64,000 bases of DNA from sequence record MF327006; one strand, 5' to 3'. How positions within the stretch are numbered: position 1 is the first letter of the stretch; each line of letters begins with the position of its first letter. Under the pieces are notes generated by a model. The model was not told the DNA's origin. It did not search any database and saw only the letters and a program-made list of their open reading frames with translations. Below, one piece after another: positions 15,478 through 33,652 of this stretch. Position numbers and translations under genes: made by a program. This DNA comes from Shigella phage Sf20.

Positions 15478-16878
15478 ATGGCAAACAATACTATTAACCA
15501 TGTAAAAGACGATGCTCAATACGTCAAGTTTAACCCTGTAAATGATTGGCCTCAAAGCATTACCAACGTACAAGCGGCTTTAGCCGCTATTAATGGCTTT
15601 GCCGTAAATGGATTACCGGACGCTACGGAAGATACAGCCGGGATCGCTGCAATCGCAACTCAGGAAGAAGTAAACGACGGCACTGTAGACAATAAGATCG
15701 TGACTCCAAAAACGCTAGCTGTTAAAATGTCACGTCCAGATGCTACAAAAGAAGTAAAAGGCATTACCCGATTTGCCACGATGGAAGAATCGCTGCAAGA
15801 GAGCAACGAGAACATGGCAATCGGTCCAGACACACTAAACCATTACTTCACCACTAAAAAGGCGTCAGAGAGCGTTCAGGGGACTATTAAGATATGTTCT
15901 CTTGAGGCGGCAAAGATTGGCAGTGATGACACAATGGCAGTAACACCGAAAAAGATGCACACTGCCATTGCACAGATTGTGCCGGGATTAATTCCAGATC
16001 AAAACACAGCAACCGAAAGCGCACAGGGTTTAGTTCAGTTAGCAACTAATGCGCAGGTTTTACAAGGCCAGATTCGAGAAGGTTTTGCAATTAGCCCTTA
16101 TGCATTTGCAAATGCTCGCGCCAATGAGAATCAGGCGGGTACTGTTAAGATCGCCAGCCAGTCACAGATGAATGCTGGTTCAGATGATACTGTAGTTGTT
16201 TCTGCTAAGAAGTTTGCAAGCACTAAGGCAACAACGTCTCAATACGGCATTGTTAAACTACGAGACACCGTAGGAAGTGAGGCTAACGCTGCACTATCAG
16301 CAAATGCTAAGGTTCTTCCTAGCACTGGCGGTACGGTAAGCGGAAACGTCTATAAAGGTTCAAACTCAGACGGCAACCAGTTTGTTACTAAAAATGAATT
16401 AGCGAATCACGCAATGCCAATTGGTGGTATTATCCTTTCTGGATTCAATGCCGATCGAGGTGACTTTCTGATCTGTAATGGTCGTTCACTGAATAAAAAT
16501 CAATATCCGCAATTATTTTCTGCGATTGGTTATACCTTTGGTGGTTCAGGTGACAATTTTAATCTTCCTGATATGCGCGGTTTAGTTGCTCGTGGTTGCG
16601 ATCATGGAAGAAACCTTGATCCAGGTCGTCGATTTGGTTCTTATCAAGAAGACGCAATGCAGAGAATTACTGGTAAATTCCCTGTAGCTGACCGCTGGCG
16701 CGGTTGGTATGGTGGCGCATTTACTGCACAGCGCGGTCAATGGAGCACGAACTATAAAAACGGTGGTGGTGATGATTGGGGTTCTACTGTTAACTTTGAT
16801 TCAGGAAGATCCGTAAGAACGGCTAACGAGACTCGCGTCAAGAGTCTGGCATTAAACTATATCATAAGGGTGCGCTAA
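15478..16878 (+). CDS. 12: short tail fiber gp12, 466 aa
   Basis: Repetitive Ala/Thr/Gly-rich fiber sequence, synteny. Confidence 0.8.
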   Translation: MANNTINHVKDDAQYVKFNPVNDWPQSITNVQAALAAINGFAVNGLPDATEDTAGIAAIATQEEVNDGTVDNKIVTPKTLAVKMSRPDATKEVKGITRFATMEESLQESNENMAIGPDTLNHYFTTKKASESVQGTIKICSLEAAKIGSDDTMAVTPKKMHTAIAQIVPGLIPDQNTATESAQGLVQLATNAQVLQGQIREGFAISPYAFANARANENQAGTVKIASQSQMNAGSDDTVVVSAKKFASTKATTSQYGIVKLRDTVGSEANAALSANAKVLPSTGGTVSGNVYKGSNSDGNQFVTKNELANHAMPIGGIILSGFNADRGDFLICNGRSLNKNQYPQLFSAIGYTFGGSGDNFNLPDMRGLVARGCDHGRNLDPGRRFGSYQEDAMQRITGKFPVADRWRGWYGGAFTAQRGQWSTNYKNGGGDDWGSTVNFDSGRSVRTANETRVKSLALNYIIRVR

Positions 16879-18647
16879 TGATTGAACAATTAAACATCCA
16901 CGAGATCCCACATGTTGACGGTGTACCAGGCGAAGGACAGCACCGTATTATTTGGATCAAGAATGGCGAATGTTTAAGCGCAGCAACGACACAGACTGGC
17001 AATGACGGGACGCTTAACCGCGCCCCGGTTGCAATTCAAGAAAACGTTGCACGCGTAAACGAAAACGCAAAATCAACCGTCGCTAAAGTTAACGAGGTTG
17101 TAACGGCGGTTAACGATATTAAAACAACTTTAGGGGTAATTTCTGACGGAAGTATCATTGATGTGGTTAACCAGACTGTCGCAAAAGTTGAATCCGTCGA
17201 AGAGAACTTAGGAGAAACAGCAAGAACTCTGCAAACAACGGTAGACGCTGTATCAGAACTTAACATCAAGATTGGTGATCGCCCCGCTGCCGATCCGAGC
17301 ACAAGAACAATCTATGATGACATTTCTTTCATCAAACAAGAAATGGGTTCTTATCCTAACTTTAATATCAATGGTTCCCCGGATGCTGGCAGTTCCGGTT
17401 CTGGCATCAAATACCGAGTTATTCAGAATACCGCAGCATTAAATGACCACGGTCGCCGAATCGTTCAGCTTGAAAACGACTGGCAAGATTCTGACGTAGG
17501 CGAGTTAACAAGACAAGTTAACAAAATGCGCAGTGAGATCGGCGACACGTCTCTTGCAACACAAGAAAATGTGTATGTTCGTCTCCGCACCAACGCAAGA
17601 AACATTGCTAACTTATCAAACGAAGTTCTAGAAGTCAAGAAAGCAATTTTGTTTGATTCAATCCCTGATATCGGGACTAAAGTCACTACGCTGGGAACTA
17701 ATTATGAACGTCTAAACAATGATGTTAATGGTGTAGATTCCGGTATTCGTCCTCGTCTTCTGGCTGTCGAGAATAAGATCGGAACGCCTCAATCGGCTGG
17801 AAGCATTGATTATCGATTAACCAACACAGAGCGAGAATTTTTAGATCTTAAACAGGTTGTTGGTGTAAGCGGTGCTGACGGTTTGCGCGGTGAAGTTGTT
17901 CGACTTTCCAATGAGATTGGCACTGACAGCGATCGACATACTCTAGCCGGACGTCTTAAAGTTGTAGAAAACACTCAGGGTCGGTTAGAAGCAAGCGTAC
18001 AGGACATGGAACAGATTGTAGGTGATCGCGAATCAGGTTTGACCGCTGGCGTTATTAAACTATCAAGTGATATCTATGGCGATGATGGTTCAGAAGATCC
18101 ATTTACTCAGAAAGGCGTGATTAAAATCGTCAAAGAGCTACAAACATCTAACGGAAACAAAGTAGATGATGTACCTGATGACGGTTTCCATTATCTGCGT
18201 AAGCGCGGAGAATGGGTGCAAGTTGCATATGCTGCTGGAGCATTTAAAAATACCGCAGATATTACGGTTGAACTTGACGAACAGGATGTTTATAAACCGA
18301 TTCCGCTTAACGACATGGCGGAAGAAGTTAATGCTCGTCAAATGGTGAAAAGTGAATCTGTTGTTACCGTTCAGGACAAAGGTTTATTCCGTTGTGTATT
18401 CCGTTGTGATGTACAAGCTCAACATAATGCAACATTCATTGTTGCGATTTTCAAAAATGGACAGATGGTACATGAAGCGAAAAATGGTCATTACGGAACA
18501 GACGAATTGATCAGCTATTCTACCAGTGCTTTCCTAAATATTGAAACGGGAGATCAGATTAACATCCGTATTAAGGGTGTATCTGCCGAAGCAGTAGCAC
18601 AGCCAGTACAAATTAAAGAGTTCCTCTTTGGGATTTCTCCGGTATAA
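16878..18647 (+). CDS. wac: fibritin (wac) with C-terminal extension domain, 589 aa
   Basis: N-terminus IPHVDGVPGEGQHRIIWIKNG like T4 fibritin; coiled-coil body; foldon-like GFHYLRKRGEWVQV followed by extra ~140 aa. Confidence 0.8.
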   Translation: MIEQLNIHEIPHVDGVPGEGQHRIIWIKNGECLSAATTQTGNDGTLNRAPVAIQENVARVNENAKSTVAKVNEVVTAVNDIKTTLGVISDGSIIDVVNQTVAKVESVEENLGETARTLQTTVDAVSELNIKIGDRPAADPSTRTIYDDISFIKQEMGSYPNFNINGSPDAGSSGSGIKYRVIQNTAALNDHGRRIVQLENDWQDSDVGELTRQVNKMRSEIGDTSLATQENVYVRLRTNARNIANLSNEVLEVKKAILFDSIPDIGTKVTTLGTNYERLNNDVNGVDSGIRPRLLAVENKIGTPQSAGSIDYRLTNTEREFLDLKQVVGVSGADGLRGEVVRLSNEIGTDSDRHTLAGRLKVVENTQGRLEASVQDMEQIVGDRESGLTAGVIKLSSDIYGDDGSEDPFTQKGVIKIVKELQTSNGNKVDDVPDDGFHYLRKRGEWVQVAYAAGAFKNTADITVELDEQDVYKPIPLNDMAEEVNARQMVKSESVVTVQDKGLFRCVFRCDVQAQHNATFIVAIFKNGQMVHEAKNGHYGTDELISYSTSAFLNIETGDQINIRIKGVSAEAVAQPVQIKEFLFGISPV

Positions 18648-18693: not shown

Positions 18694-19626
18694 ATGTCAG
18701 GATATGTAACCAATAACCCAAGAGAATTAAAAGACGCTATTCTGCGTCGTTTAGGCGCACCAGTAATTAACGTAGAAGTAACAGAAGACCAGATTTACGA
18801 TTGTATTCAGAGAGCATTAGAACTCTATGGGGAATATCATTTCGATGGTGTGAATAAAGGATATAAAGTATTTCGTGTTAGTGCCGAGCAAGCGCAACAC
18901 GGGGTATTTGATTTAAGCGATTCTGGAGTATTCGCAGTAACTAAAATAATTCGAACAAACGTAGGTAGCGCGGCTACGATGGATGGTACTGCCGTTTATC
19001 CGTGGTTTACTGACTTTCTGTTGGGTTTAGCGGGTGTAAATGGCGGTTTAGGATCTGGCTGTAGTAAATTTTATGGTCCAAATGCAATGGGTGGTGATCT
19101 AGGATATTTCGAACAGCTTATGAGCTATAGAGCCACTATGCAAAATATGCTCAATCCGCTGCCAGATTATTGGTATAACAGCGCAAACGGACAACTTAAG
19201 ATAACAGGAAACTTCCGAGAAGGTGATCTCATTGTTGTTGAATTATATGTTAAAAGCTATGTAGACGTTCCTGATATGATCGGCGCGGTTGCTGGTTATG
19301 CTCATGCGGGAGGATGTTCTACCGCTGGCGGGATTAGCGCCGTTTATGATAATCCAACTGCTGGTTTAAGCGGGATTGTTGCTGGCATGGGACCGATCAG
19401 TGAGAACAAGCAGGGCGCATATAATAACCGTTGGGTTAAAGACATGGCAACCGCTTTCACTAAGGAGGTGTGGGGGTCCATCATGGCTAAACATCAAGGT
19501 CTGCAATTACCCGGCGGTGTCACTGTTGATGGTATCCGAATCATTGAAGAAGCACGCGCCGACATTGAGAAATTGCGACAAGAACTAGAATTATTAGATC
19601 CTCCGTTCGGCATCCTCATGATTTGA
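18694..19626 (+). CDS. 13: neck protein gp13, 310 aa
   Basis: Size and synteny. Confidence 0.8.
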
Positions 19627-19662
19627 TTTATTGGGGGAGTATTCCCCCATTTGGAGTAACAT

Positions 19663-20403
19663 ATGTTTAACAACACTCTTTTTGCTCGCCTTGAATCGCA
19701 AAAGGATTATGAGAATACACGACAAACCGAGATTCTCAATCCTTACGTAAATTTCAACCGTCATACAAACACCCAGACGTTAGCCGACGTTATGGTCGCC
19801 GAAGCTATTCAGATGCGAGGTGTAGAATTATATTACATCCCTCGTGAATTTGTCAAACCAGATATGATCTTTGGTGAGGATGTTCAAAGCAAATTTACTA
19901 AAGCATGGAAATTTGCGGCTTATATTAACTCATTTGATGGGTATGAAGGAGCGGGTAATTTCTTCTCTAGTTTCGGGTATCAAGCTAATGATGAATTAAC
20001 TTTTACGGTTAACCCCAACCTATTCAAGCATCAAGTAGATGATCAAGAGCCAAAATCAGGTGACTTAATTTATATTCCAATGAGTAATGATCTCTTTGAA
20101 ATCAATTACGTCGAGCCATATCAGCCGTTTTTTCAGGCTGGCAAAAATGCCATGCGTAAAATTATTGCAGAGAAATTCGTGTATAGCGGTGAGGAATTGC
20201 GACCAGAATTACAACGCAATGAGGGAATTAATGTTGATGAGTTTGCGGATCTGGATCTTGCACCGATCACTAATCTGGACGGGTTAACAGATATCAACTT
20301 AGATCAGTACAAAGAAGATAAGCAATTCAGAAGCGAAGGACAAGATTTTATTGATCCGTTTGATCCTATTAATGGCAAGGGTTCACCTTTCGCCGATTTT
20401 TGA
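19663..20403 (+). CDS. 14: neck protein gp14, 246 aa
   Basis: Size and synteny. Confidence 0.8.
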
Positions 20404-30076: not shown

Positions 30077-31675
30077 ATGAAAACTACCAAAGAACTGATG
30101 GAAAAATGGTCCCCGCTGCTGGAGAACGAAAAACTGCCGGAAATCGCAACTGCGTCTAAGCAGAAACTGGTTGCTAAAATTCTGGAATCTCAGGAAGCGG
30201 ATTTTGCTGTAGACCCGATCTATAAGGATGAAAAAGTTGTTGAAGCATTCGGTGGCTTTATCGCAGAAGCCGAAGTTGCTGGCGACCACGGTTATGACGC
30301 ATCTCAGATCGCGGCTGGTCAGACTACTGGCGCAATCACTAACGTAGGTCCGGCTGTTATCGGTATGGTTCGCCGTGCTATCCCTAACCTGATCGCATTT
30401 GATATTTGTGGCGTTCAGCCGATGAGCACTCCGACTAGCCAGATCTTTGCAATCCGTTCTGTATACGGTCCAGATCCGCTGGCAGGTGGCAATGCTCAGA
30501 ATGTTCGTGAAGCATTCCATCCGATGTATGCGCCAGATGCTTTCCATAGCTCTCTTGCTGCTAAAGGTGCAACTGTAGGTTCACCAACTGGTACTGCATT
30601 CGCTAAACTAACTCTCAGCACTCCGATTGATGCAGGTGATATTGTACACCACACCTTCGCAGAAACTGGCATTGCATATCTGCAAAACGTTACCGCAGGA
30701 CAAGTAACCCCGACCAAAGCTGGTAGCGAGTCAGATGATGAAGTTGTCATGAAGCTGATTGAAGAAGGTAAACTGGCTGAAATCGCTTTCGGTATGGCTA
30801 CTTCCATTGCCGAAATTCAGGAAGGCTTTAACGGTTCCAGCAATAACCCGTGGGCTGAAATGTCAATGCGTATTGACAAACAGGTTGTTGAAGCGAAATC
30901 TCGCCAACTGAAAGCCCGTTATTCTATCGAAGTTGCGCAGGATCTGCGTGCTGTACACGGTATGGATGCTGATGCCGAACTGAATGCTATCCTGGCTAAC
31001 GAAGTTCTGCTGGAAATCAACCGTGAAATCGTTGACGTCATCAACTTTACCGCTCAGGTTGGTAAGACTGGTATGACTCAGACCGTTGGTTCTAAAGCTG
31101 GTGTATTTGACCTGCAAGACCCGATCGATACTCGCGGTGCTCGTTGGGCTGGTGAATCCTTCAAATCTCTGATCTACCAGATCGACAAAGAAGCTGCTGA
31201 AATCGCTCGTCAGACTGGTCGCGGTGCGGGTAACTTTGTTATCGCTTCCCGTAACGTTGTAAACATTCTGGCTTCTGCTGATCAGGGTATCAGTCTTGCT
31301 ATGCAGGGTGCTGCAAAAGGTCTGAATACCGACACCACTAAAGCTGTTTTCGCTGGTGTTCTGGCTGGTAAGTACAAAGTGTTCATCGACCAGTATGCTC
31401 GTCAAGACTACTTCACCGTAGGTTACAAAGGCGACAACGAAATGGATGCTGGTATCTACTATGCTCCGTATGTTGCTCTGACTCCGCTGCGTGCAACTGA
31501 CCCGCAGTCTTTCCACCCGGTTCTGGGCTTCAAGACTCGCTATGGCATCGGTATTAACCCGTTTGCAGACAGCAAATCCCAGGCACCGTCCGCTCGCATC
31601 ACCTCCGGTATGTTGAGCAAAGACAGCGTAGGTAAAAACGCATACTTCCGTCGTGTATGGGTTAAAGGTTGCTAA
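30077..31675 (+). CDS. 23: major capsid protein gp23, 532 aa
   Basis: Size, codon usage typical of highly expressed gene, flanked by late promoter and strong terminator. Confidence 0.95.
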   Translation: MKTTKELMEKWSPLLENEKLPEIATASKQKLVAKILESQEADFAVDPIYKDEKVVEAFGGFIAEAEVAGDHGYDASQIAAGQTTGAITNVGPAVIGMVRRAIPNLIAFDICGVQPMSTPTSQIFAIRSVYGPDPLAGGNAQNVREAFHPMYAPDAFHSSLAAKGATVGSPTGTAFAKLTLSTPIDAGDIVHHTFAETGIAYLQNVTAGQVTPTKAGSESDDEVVMKLIEEGKLAEIAFGMATSIAEIQEGFNGSSNNPWAEMSMRIDKQVVEAKSRQLKARYSIEVAQDLRAVHGMDADAELNAILANEVLLEINREIVDVINFTAQVGKTGMTQTVGSKAGVFDLQDPIDTRGARWAGESFKSLIYQIDKEAAEIARQTGRGAGNFVIASRNVVNILASADQGISLAMQGAAKGLNTDTTKAVFAGVLAGKYKVFIDQYARQDYFTVGYKGDNEMDAGIYYAPYVALTPLRATDPQSFHPVLGFKTRYGIGINPFADSKSQAPSARITSGMLSKDSVGKNAYFRRVWVKGC

Positions 31676-31760
31676 TATAAGCCATTCCTGAAAAACTCCG
31701 GTCGGGTGCAATACCCGACTTATCATAAACCTTATGACAGTGTAAAGTGTTAATTCCAAA

Positions 31761-31790
31761 GGGAAGACTCGAAAGGGTCTTCCCTTTTTG
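31761..31790 (+). terminator. rho-independent terminator after gene 23
   Basis: Hairpin GGGAAGACTC-gaaa-GGGTCTTCCC followed by TTTTTG. Confidence 0.75.
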
Positions 31791-31805
31791 CGTATTATAA
31801 CCCGT

Positions 31806-31813
31806 TATAAATA
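31806..31813 (+). promoter_or_regulatory. T4-type late promoter core TATAAATA
   Basis: Exact TATAAATA in 23-24 intergenic region. Confidence 0.5.
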
Positions 31814-32174
31814 AGGTTGCAAGCCTATATTCTATTGGGAGCGAAAATCGATACACACAACAAAGACAGGAAGATGCGGAACATCGGTGGGTTGCTAGCC
31901 TAAATCCGGTGGATATGATATGTGATTTCTTTTGATGCTGGATTTATTAAAACACAACAAACAATTCCACCAATTTTCGTAGTAACTGCATGGCAAAGGG
32001 ACCAATGAATGAAATGAGCGTTCATGTTGATATTGGGTCGGATAGATTTGGTAGATATACAGATCTGGTGTATGCCGACCTTGTTATGACATTCCAGCGT
32101 GACGCTAGCAGTAATTTTTGGTTTTGGTACGCTGTTCCCTGAATTAACCCAAAATTCTCCATAAGGAGGAATGC

Positions 32175-32327
32175 ATGAGTAAGAAAGAAAACAGCTATGT
32201 TATGACTCGTAAGGAATACAACGAATTGATGTTAGCATTAGCTTATGCCATTATTCGTTCTGATCATGCAATTAATCTGGTAAACAAAGTTAACCGTAGC
32301 GTTGATAATGTTTCTAGGAAGAAGTAA
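32175..32327 (+). CDS. small hypothetical protein, 50 aa
   Basis: ATG 4 nt after strong RBS AGGAGGA; followed by terminator hairpin; below ORF-track size cutoff. Confidence 0.45.
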   Translation: MSKKENSYVMTRKEYNELMLALAYAIIRSDHAINLVNKVNRSVDNVSRKK

Positions 32328-32336
32328 GTTTATTTT

Positions 32337-32365
32337 GGAATCCTTCGGATTCCTTTTTCTTTTTG
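32337..32365 (+). terminator. rho-independent terminator
   Basis: Hairpin GGAATCC-ttc-GGATTCC followed by TTTTTCTTTTT. Confidence 0.6.
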
Positions 32366-32373
32366 TATAAATA
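32366..32373 (+). promoter_or_regulatory. T4-type late promoter core TATAAATA upstream of gene 24
   Basis: Exact TATAAATA 45 nt upstream of ATG 32411. Confidence 0.65.
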
Positions 32374-32410
32374 TGATATATCCATTAAGGCAAATACAGG
32401 ATTCATAAAC

Positions 32411-33652
32411 ATGACTCATATTTTTACTGAACTGTTGCGGGAATCTACTTCCTCAGTAGCTAACCAGACAGCGCGACCGCAACTATTATCATTAACTCGC
32501 GCGGTAAACAACCTGATTTTCTCTGACCTGGTAGCAATCCAGCCAACGGATCAACCAGTATCTGCATTGTACGGACTACGTTATCTTAATCGTGATGGTC
32601 AGATGACTTTCCGAACTGCTGCGACCTACGGTGGCGCGGCTGGTGATCGCACAGAGATTGAAGAGTTTTCAAAAGAAAAATCTTATGACGAAGGCGCACT
32701 GTTCAAATCAGGCGATGTTGTATACGAAGTTGTGACCGCTGGTACAGTCGGTGAAGATGCCGAAACTCCAGAATCTGCAATCTTTAAAGGCGTAATGACA
32801 AACAAAATTCGTTTCTATAGCGATTGTGCATCGGTAGAATACTTTGAAGATAAAAACACCGAAATTTCGTCTACCTCTATGCAGTTTGACAAGTGGCAAG
32901 TTAATGTAGGTTCTCGTAAACTGAAAACCTCGTTCACGACCGAATTGATGCAGGATCTTGAGGCAAGCCAAATCAACTCTGAAAACTCTGTAATTGATCT
33001 TCTGGCTACTGTTGCTTCCGAAGAGATCAACAAAGATATTATTCAGAAGTTGATCACTGTATCATCTCGCTATAAAATTAAAGGGATCACTCCTGATGGC
33101 GTACTTTCTCTCGTTAGCGTTCAGGATGCACCAACACAAGCGCGTGAACTTTACCGCTATGCTTGCGAAATGAGCAATCAAATGTTGCGGACTTCCTCCT
33201 TTGCTGGTACATACGTTTTGGCGTCTTCTCGCGTGGTTGGCCTCCTGCAATCTTCCGGTTGGATGGAAGAAACCGACAATGCTCTAAGCGAAGGTCGTCT
33301 ACGTTGCGGTCTGGAAGTGTACGCAGACACGACAACACCTTTCGATTATATGCTCGTTGGTTGTAAGCACATGATCGGTGATATGGAGAGTGTAGGTTCT
33401 CTGTTCTACTCCCCATATACAGAAGCCGACGGCGCTGGCGCGTATAAGAGCGTAATTGACCCTAATAGCTTCCAGCATCATGTAGCTATTATGAATCGTT
33501 ATTCACTCTCTGTCAACCCATACACATCAAAAGTTGATCAGGAAGAACACCAGGTCATCAAGGGTGACGATTGGGGTAAAATGGCTGGACGTTCAGAAAT
33601 GTCCTACATTTTAGGAATCGAACTGCCACCGCTTGAGATTGACAACGCTTAA
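32411..33652 (+). CDS. 24: head vertex protein gp24, 413 aa
   Basis: Starts MTHIFTELLRESTSS (T4 gp24 ..NELLRESTT.. as remembered); ORF-track TTG extension overlapping the late promoter trimmed. Confidence 0.9.
   Translation: MTHIFTELLRESTSSVANQTARPQLLSLTRAVNNLIFSDLVAIQPTDQPVSALYGLRYLNRDGQMTFRTAATYGGAAGDRTEIEEFSKEKSYDEGALFKSGDVVYEVVTAGTVGEDAETPESAIFKGVMTNKIRFYSDCASVEYFEDKNTEISSTSMQFDKWQVNVGSRKLKTSFTTELMQDLEASQINSENSVIDLLATVASEEINKDIIQKLITVSSRYKIKGITPDGVLSLVSVQDAPTQARELYRYACEMSNQMLRTSSFAGTYVLASSRVVGLLQSSGWMEETDNALSEGRLRCGLEVYADTTTPFDYMLVGCKHMIGDMESVGSLFYSPYTEADGAGAYKSVIDPNSFQHHVAIMNRYSLSVNPYTSKVDQEEHQVIKGDDWGKMAGRSEMSYILGIELPPLEIDNA

Follow-up and report, generated by a model that had tools for sequence, protein, structure and literature searches.

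Few trimerisation tags are used as widely in protein engineering as the foldon of fibritin, and the whiskers of phage T4 are part of the device that decides when its tail fibres deploy. T4 fibritin and its foldon are represented by several reference structures (PDB accession numbers 1aa0, 1avy, 2bsg, and 1rfo), and the N-terminal domain of the T4 protein serves for attachment of the fibre to the neck protein gp13 (PMC12929629). RB49 fibritin is one of approximately eight types that are told apart by their C-terminal domains (Letarov & Krisch 2013, PMC3797505). In the passages of that review that cite Letarov et al. (2005, J Bacteriol 187:1055), only the T4 and JS98 fibritins are described as trimerising with the small foldon alone, whereas the folding and trimerisation of RB49 fibritin are stated to require additional sequences in its expanded C-terminal domain; as the review presents it, the foldon-like segment of RB49 is insufficient for trimerisation and the T4 foldon is sufficient. 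The review also reports, on biochemical grounds, that RB49 fibritin is a homotrimer. The C-terminal moiety of RB49-like Wac proteins is described as unrelated to that of T4 (PMC9569957). The extra domain and its role in folding are already published for RB49 (2005, 2013), and the literature that was searched yielded no virion structure of an RB49-like phage.

Location and overall architecture of the wac gene

The window, i.e., the whole stretch of 64,000 nucleotides of Shigella phage Sf20 that was analysed, covers one piece of the genome, and its source is, by sequence, an RB49-like T4-type phage of the genus Krischvirus. The wac gene, its parts, and its two neighbours are located as follows.

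15478-16878, + strand: gp12 (short tail fibre), the upstream neighbour
16878-18647, + strand: wac (fibritin, the neck whisker and collar fibre), one uninterrupted ORF of 1770 nt encoding 589 aa plus a stop codon
16878-17027, + strand: conserved N-terminal domain of fibritin, aa 1-50, placed by alignment to the T4 constructs 1ox3 and 2ibl
17028-18155, + strand: segmented α-helical coiled-coil shaft of fibritin, aa 51-426, collinear with T4 fibritin and with AlphaFold2 (AF2) helices up to aa 426
18156-18224, + strand: foldon-like segment, aa 427-449, NKVDDVPDDGFHYLRKRGEWVQV, placed by the Fibritin_C match, the T4 foldon alignment, and the AF2 hairpin
18225-18644, + strand: C-terminal head of fibritin, aa 450-589, a predicted 10- to 11-strand β-jelly-roll of the C1q/TNF/BclA-C fold
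18694-19626, + strand: gp13 (neck protein), the downstream neighbour

The gene order gp11-gp12-wac-gp13-gp14-gp15 matches that of annotated relatives, and wac of T4 likewise lies between gp12 and gp13. In nucleotide sequence, the wac gene shares 99.4% identity with its counterpart in phage kvi and 99.1% with the RB49 gene, and its product matches PHROG 1056 ("fibritin neck whisker") over residues 1 to 581 (E = 2e-186). Residues 6 to 431 were aligned by HMMER with residues 5 to 435 of T4 fibritin (PDB accession numbers 2bsg and 3j2o; E = 4e-49), and in the N-terminal region residues 7 to 83 align with the T4 constructs 1ox3 and 2ibl (E ~6e-15). By sequence and synteny, the protein is a T4-type fibritin (gpWac); it is the same protein as RB49 gpWac, and its last 140 aa are 98.6% identical to those of RB49.

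At positions 16875-16881, the stop codon of gp12 overlaps the start codon of wac (ATGA), an arrangement suggestive of translational coupling between the genes for the short tail fibre and fibritin.

The foldon-like segment and the start of the extension

The translation of positions 18183-18647 begins with GFHYLRKRGEWVQV and continues for 140 further residues to a stop codon. Residues 425 to 449 were aligned with the T4 foldon segment by HMMER, and Pfam family Fibritin_C (PF07921) matches residues 368 to 451 (E = 1e-30), with 106 bits against a gathering cut-off of 21. Within the foldon-like segment, both AF2 models described below predict a β-hairpin formed by strands 439-442 and 445-448, at a lower confidence that is to be expected of a monomer prediction.

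The N-terminal domain, the segmented coiled coil, and the P-x-D-G-x-x-Y-x-R-K-x-G-E-W-V hairpin are common to the T4 and window fibritins. The two proteins differ in what follows: with 487 aa, T4 fibritin extends only a few residues past the hairpin, whereas the window protein has 140 more residues in a globular head. The sequence-only reading had claimed both that a C-terminal domain of approximately 140 aa follows the foldon-like motif and that T4 fibritin ends soon after its foldon. Both observations are confirmed, the first by a single ORF with the translation quoted there and the second by the length of the T4 protein.

The extension is part of the fibritin coding sequence

Over its full length, the 1770-nt ORF is present in 57 phage records, with an identity of at least 95% in 39 and of 60 to 80% in the other 18. 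In comparison with phage JSE, the head (residues 450 to 589) has a dN/dS of 0.185 (dN = 0.167, dS = 0.906) and the shaft a dN/dS of 0.086, and the GC content is ordinary (0.39 to 0.41). The same fusion is retained in fibritins at only 26 to 41% identity, namely, those of Serratia phages WSPA, PS2, and Muldoon and a metagenomic homologue (P0004). Among the 589-aa homologues, sequence identity to the window protein ranges from 53 to 99% in the head and likewise from 53 to 99% in the shaft. The entropy is 0.51 in the head and 0.61 in the shaft. In 16 unique sequences, which are 53% to 99% identical to the window protein, 37% of the columns of the head are invariant. The head is neither decaying nor hypervariable, and its identity tracks that of the shaft.

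The probability that the extension is an artefact, i.e., a non-functional sequence or the product of read-through, by a frameshift, into a separate ORF downstream, is negligible. Two apparent stand-alone versions of the head, a 110-aa ORF in a metagenome (P0001) and a 159-aa ORF of Klebsiella phage KPV15, could be taken to favour such an artefact, but P0001 lies on a metagenome scaffold whose wac gene is interrupted by a run of N with duplicated flanks, behind which the ORF starts, and many structural genes are split in the annotation of the KPV15 genome, whose 159 aa sit inside intact fibritin genes in approximately 170 other records. The 589-aa ORF is, moreover, intact in the 57 phage genomes and under purifying selection, and the extension is confidently predicted to fold in two AF2 runs. 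Frameshifted read-through, which the sequence-only reading had itself raised, is ruled out by the intact ORFs, the dN/dS of the head, and the artefactual nature of the stand-alone versions.

Both stand-alone head genes were rejected as candidates, P0001 as an N-gap artefact and the KPV15 ORF as a likely piece of a split wac. In the ENA metagenome scaffold, the run of N and the duplicated flanks lie at approximately positions 2790-2900 and leave a truncated 541-aa ORF in addition to the spurious 110-aa P0001. In the KPV15 record (KY000080), positions 30804-32569 encode a 421-aa "neck whiskers protein" and then a 159-aa "hypothetical protein", which together have the appearance of a single wac gene that a frameshift or a sequencing error has divided; gp6, gp7, gp13, and gp18 are also annotated in pieces in this record.

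Predicted structure of the head

The structure of residues 425 to 589 was predicted by AF2 using an alignment with 14 homologues (mean pLDDT = 87.5, pTM = 0.81). The confidence exceeds 90 over most of residues 450 to 589, and 10 to 11 β-strands are predicted. A second run with residues 340 to 589 and a different alignment gave helices up to residue 426, a β-hairpin at residues 438 to 449, and the same β-sandwich; both runs are monomer predictions. One of the 15 rows in the first alignment was a 736-aa protein (P0024) that was added for its similar-looking tail. As a relative of the head, this protein was rejected (hhalign probability of only 0.4%), and it is unlikely to have driven the first model, since the second model, which was built without it, agrees.

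In structure comparisons, the head model is most similar to the C1q domain of Caprin-2 (score = 14.5), EDA-A1 (14.1), the C-terminal domains of BclA and F-BclA (13.8), ExsFA (13.6), and C1QL1 and Cbln1 (13.6), with RMSD values of approximately 2.2 to 2.8 Å over approximately 120 residues. Foldseek returned 212 matches in the PDB at E < 1e-3, from the same families, and 422 matches among predicted viral structures (BFVD), many of them on collagen-like or tail-fibre proteins. Like the gC1q/TNF-ligand/BclA-C superfold, for which Caprin-2 C1q (4oul), EDA-A1 (1rj7), BclA (1wck), ExsFA (7r1m), and collagen VIII and X NC1 (1o91 and 1gr3) served as references, the head is predicted to be a ten-strand jelly-roll β-sandwich and is located C-terminal to a trimeric fibrous stalk. 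In contrast, the stalk of fibritin is an α-helical coiled coil and not a collagen triple helix, and the sequence identity between the heads is 8 to 19%.

The link at the sequence level is below the thresholds of Pfam. The head scores 22.7 bits with BclA_C (PF18573; cut-off of 38 bits, best family member 27.9 bits) and 15.5 bits with C1q (PF00386; cut-off of 23.7 bits), and such subthreshold matches are found in 10 of the 15 family members for BclA_C and in 9 of the 15 for C1q. Sequence and profile searches of the PDB with the head gave no true match; what they returned were foldon chains and Ig-like "DxGxYxC" matches that arise by chance. On the models, the head shares the C1q/TNF/BclA-C fold, and it is not classed as a member of either Pfam C1q or BclA_C; homology to the C1q/TNF superfamily rather than convergence on its fold is not proven, the similarity being below the curated cut-offs. 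The sequence-only reading had guessed at a jelly-roll, possibly C1q/TNF-like, domain. The monomer prediction for residues 425 to 589 does give a folded domain, and the two AF2 runs and the structural matches support the guess, with the sequence link remaining subthreshold.

The same fold, as predicted here, is found at the distal ends of trimeric virion fibres in the TNF-like tips of other phages, of which P5 of PRD1 (1yq8), the receptor-binding domain of TM4 gp23 (9n6a), the fibres of cyanophages A4 and A-1(L) (9k09 and 8ke9), the receptor-binding protein of phage 1358 (4l92), the needle knob of Sf6 (3rwn), and the central spike knob of phi812 (9eul) were compared. These tips belong to tail or vertex fibres and bind receptors, as shown or presumed, whereas the head in the window is placed on the neck whiskers and collar. 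The whiskers and collar of T4, unlike such tips, regulate the long tail fibres and do not bind the host.

Distribution of the head among T4-like phages

In plain sequence searches, the head is close to being an orphan. Searches of a word index for homologues, whether with just the head or with five aligned head sequences as the query, gave only two 110-aa fragments, both of which are assembly artefacts, and the real homologues came only with the full-length query. The head used as a tblastn query detected Krischvirus wac genes only (75 to 100% identity) and, weakly, Serratia phage WSPA. When 1.84 billion representatives were scanned exhaustively with HMMER, the head recovered, apart from its own cluster, only a fibritin at 30% identity (P0004) and a repeat protein that is a spurious match (P0005). 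Some of the homologues bear the precomputed Pfam label PF28231.

Profile comparison reaches further. The architecture of hairpin and head recurs in the Serratia Muldoon-like phages. Fibritins of the Aeromonas phage 25 type (587 aa) have the hairpin GRWYYENGVWVKA followed by approximately 138 aa, and their heads match the RB49-type profile with an hhalign probability of 95.6% (score = 54, number of aligned columns = 124), compared with a maximum score of 22 for 60 shuffled controls. The head of the Klebsiella JD18/KpV477 type matches that of the RB49 type with an hhalign probability of 93.6% over 129 columns and is the second-best structural match in BFVD. The Aeromonas 25/44RR, Klebsiella JD18/KpV477, and Serratia Muldoon types resemble the window protein in having a foldon-like hairpin followed by a β-rich head of approximately 136 to 140 aa and in their total length of approximately 586 to 595 aa; they differ from it in being only 15 to 30% identical and in that the literature assigns them to different "types".

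Because the profiles of the RB49, Aeromonas 25, and JD18 types match, the hairpin and jelly-roll head appear to be a tip common to at least four T4-like phage lineages, which together comprise several hundred phage records. Several fibritin "types" that have been held to be unrelated would then merge through a common head. The bare foldon of T4 may be a reduced form of the head-bearing tip, a direction of change that we put forward only as a possibility. In addition to what the review describes for RB49 gpWac, the analysis shows a retained foldon-like hairpin, assigns the fold to C1q/TNF, and links the RB49, Aeromonas 25, and JD18 types by profile comparison; both the fold and the profile link to the heads of the Aeromonas phage 25 and Klebsiella JD18 types appear to go beyond earlier work. 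In the literature that was searched, no earlier C1q/TNF assignment of any fibritin tip was found, which is not proof of absence.

Two metagenomic fibritin homologues of 1006 to 1007 aa (P0022 and P0023) have a T4-like N terminus and shaft and a long C-terminal region with at least five spaced foldon-like hairpins, e.g., TEGTYLRKTGEWVKS, DTKYYARRDGMWEKI, DGQLYGRGSREWKAIG, DGQIYGRKDNKWVVF, and DSMKYVRQNGAWTTA. They take the two-foldon arrangement of the JS98 type to an extreme.

The head as a probable trimerisation and registration knob

The C1q/TNF-fold head of 140 residues in which RB49-type fibritin ends is probably a C-terminal trimerisation and registration knob at the tip of the fibre. The gC1q/NC1 and BclA-C heads nucleate their stalks, and all close structural relatives are, to our knowledge, obligate trimers at the ends of trimeric stalks; together with the need of RB49 fibritin for this region in order to fold, these properties argue for a role as a folding nucleus. 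From the fold family and the fact that fibritin is a trimer, we infer that three copies of the head would pack around the fibre axis into a compact unit. This unit would nucleate trimerisation and set the register at the C terminus, and the coiled coil would zip from there towards the N terminus. The head would do the same job, by analogy, as the gC1q/NC1 heads for collagen stalks, the C-terminal domain of BclA for the filament of the Bacillus exosporium, and the bare foldon in T4. In the virion, it would form the knob at the distal ends of the whiskers and collar fibres. A C1q/TNF-fold head on the whiskers would account for the inability of RB49 fibritin to fold with its foldon-like hairpin alone. 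The basic picture is unchanged, as the domain and its folding role had been published and C1q/TNF-like heads are common on phage fibres.

Possible binding of the host or the environment

The foldon-like hairpin is retained just upstream of the head, so that the need for a second trimerisation element is not obvious, which leaves room for a different primary function. The head is a concrete candidate for carrying an additional binding activity at the neck of the phage. Its main role might be that of a lectin-like or receptor-binding whisker knob with which the host surface (LPS, O-antigen, or capsule) or the environment is sensed and which would aid adsorption or control the release of the long tail fibres. 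Host-surface sensing was put forward by the sequence-only reading as a possible added function; we consider it unlikely as the primary role. Folds of the C1q/TNF type are common on the receptor-binding tips of phage fibres, and many of the 422 viral BFVD matches lie on collagen-like or tail-fibre proteins. In T4, the kneecap of the long tail fibre binds helix α11 of the whisker (residues 361 to 386) and not its C terminus (bioRxiv 10.64898/2026.03.06.709160), so the whisker tip would be free for something else, and Letarov & Krisch leave open additional functions for variant fibritins (PMC3797505). Head alleles are exchanged, as shown by the wac gene of phage ECD7, which is a mosaic: it is at least 99% identical to the window/RB49 type up to approximately nt 1400 of the gene (approximately aa 467 to 480) and, beyond this point, 99% identical to the JSE type through the rest of the head. 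The alignment places a recombination breakpoint inside the head domain.

The head, however, is not hypervariable: its identity tracks that of the shaft, 37% of its columns are invariant, and its dN/dS is 0.19, whereas host-range determinants such as gp37 and gp38 behave differently (PMC3797505). The one function on record for the region is in folding and trimerisation (PMC3797505), and no ligand-binding motif was identified in the head. If the knob does bind something, the enlarged gp36 of the long tail fibre and host surface material are the candidates.

A broader proposal, in which the head is both the common ancestral tip of T4-type fibritins (Krischvirus, Muldoonvirus, Aeromonas 25/44RR, and JD18) and a lectin-like sensor of host polysaccharide or the environment, is in our judgement decidedly doubtful. 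If it were true, the bare foldon of T4 would be a reduced remnant of the neck of the head, the proximity of the host would be coupled to the release of the long tail fibres, and a large share of the Straboviridae would possess a second, neck-borne means of host sensing.

Possible contact with the long tail fibre

A trimerisation and registration knob might also have a partner within the virion. The head could dock the enlarged C-terminal part of gp36 of the phage's own long tail fibre, thereby holding the fibres retracted or assisting their attachment, although we regard this as very improbable. Covariation of the C termini of gpwac and gp36 is reported in passages of two articles (PMC3797505 and PMC9569957; an idea from Letarov 2005). 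The gp36 protein of RB49 has 496 aa, compared with 221 aa in T4, and the match of T4-like gp36 proteins to it is confined to the first ~171 residues. The C-terminal 217 aa of the RB49 protein are found at a coverage of at least 80% in only 68 phage records, and the records listed among these belong to Krischvirus or to Muldoon-like Serratia phages, the two groups whose heads are closest. Shared ancestry may, however, suffice to explain co-occurrence in two related genera. The gp36 proteins of the Klebsiella and Aeromonas phages listed match only the N-terminal part of RB49 gp36; no gp36 extension of the RB49 type was detected in them by sequence, even though homologous heads are found in T4-like phages of those hosts. 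In ECD7, a JSE-type head is combined with a gp36 C terminus that is 100% identical to that of RB49. Moreover, the contact between whisker and fibre in T4 is made by gp35 with helix α11 and not by gp36 with the C terminus of fibritin (bioRxiv 10.64898/2026.03.06.709160).

Residues ~355 to 380 of the window protein (positions 17940-18020 of the window) align with helix α11 of the T4 whisker (residues 361 to 386), and the contact residues of the T4 helix (N377, Q380, N381, and Q383) are not conserved in it. The whisker-fibre contact of RB49-like phages may be different from that in T4.

Downstream of wac, gp13 lies directly beside gp14 in the window (positions 19626-19663). In kvi and ECD7, a homing endonuclease gene (segC-like, ~585 nt) is located between gp13 and gp14, and from the comparison of these genomes the gp13-gp14 gap is a site of presence/absence polymorphism of a mobile endonuclease.
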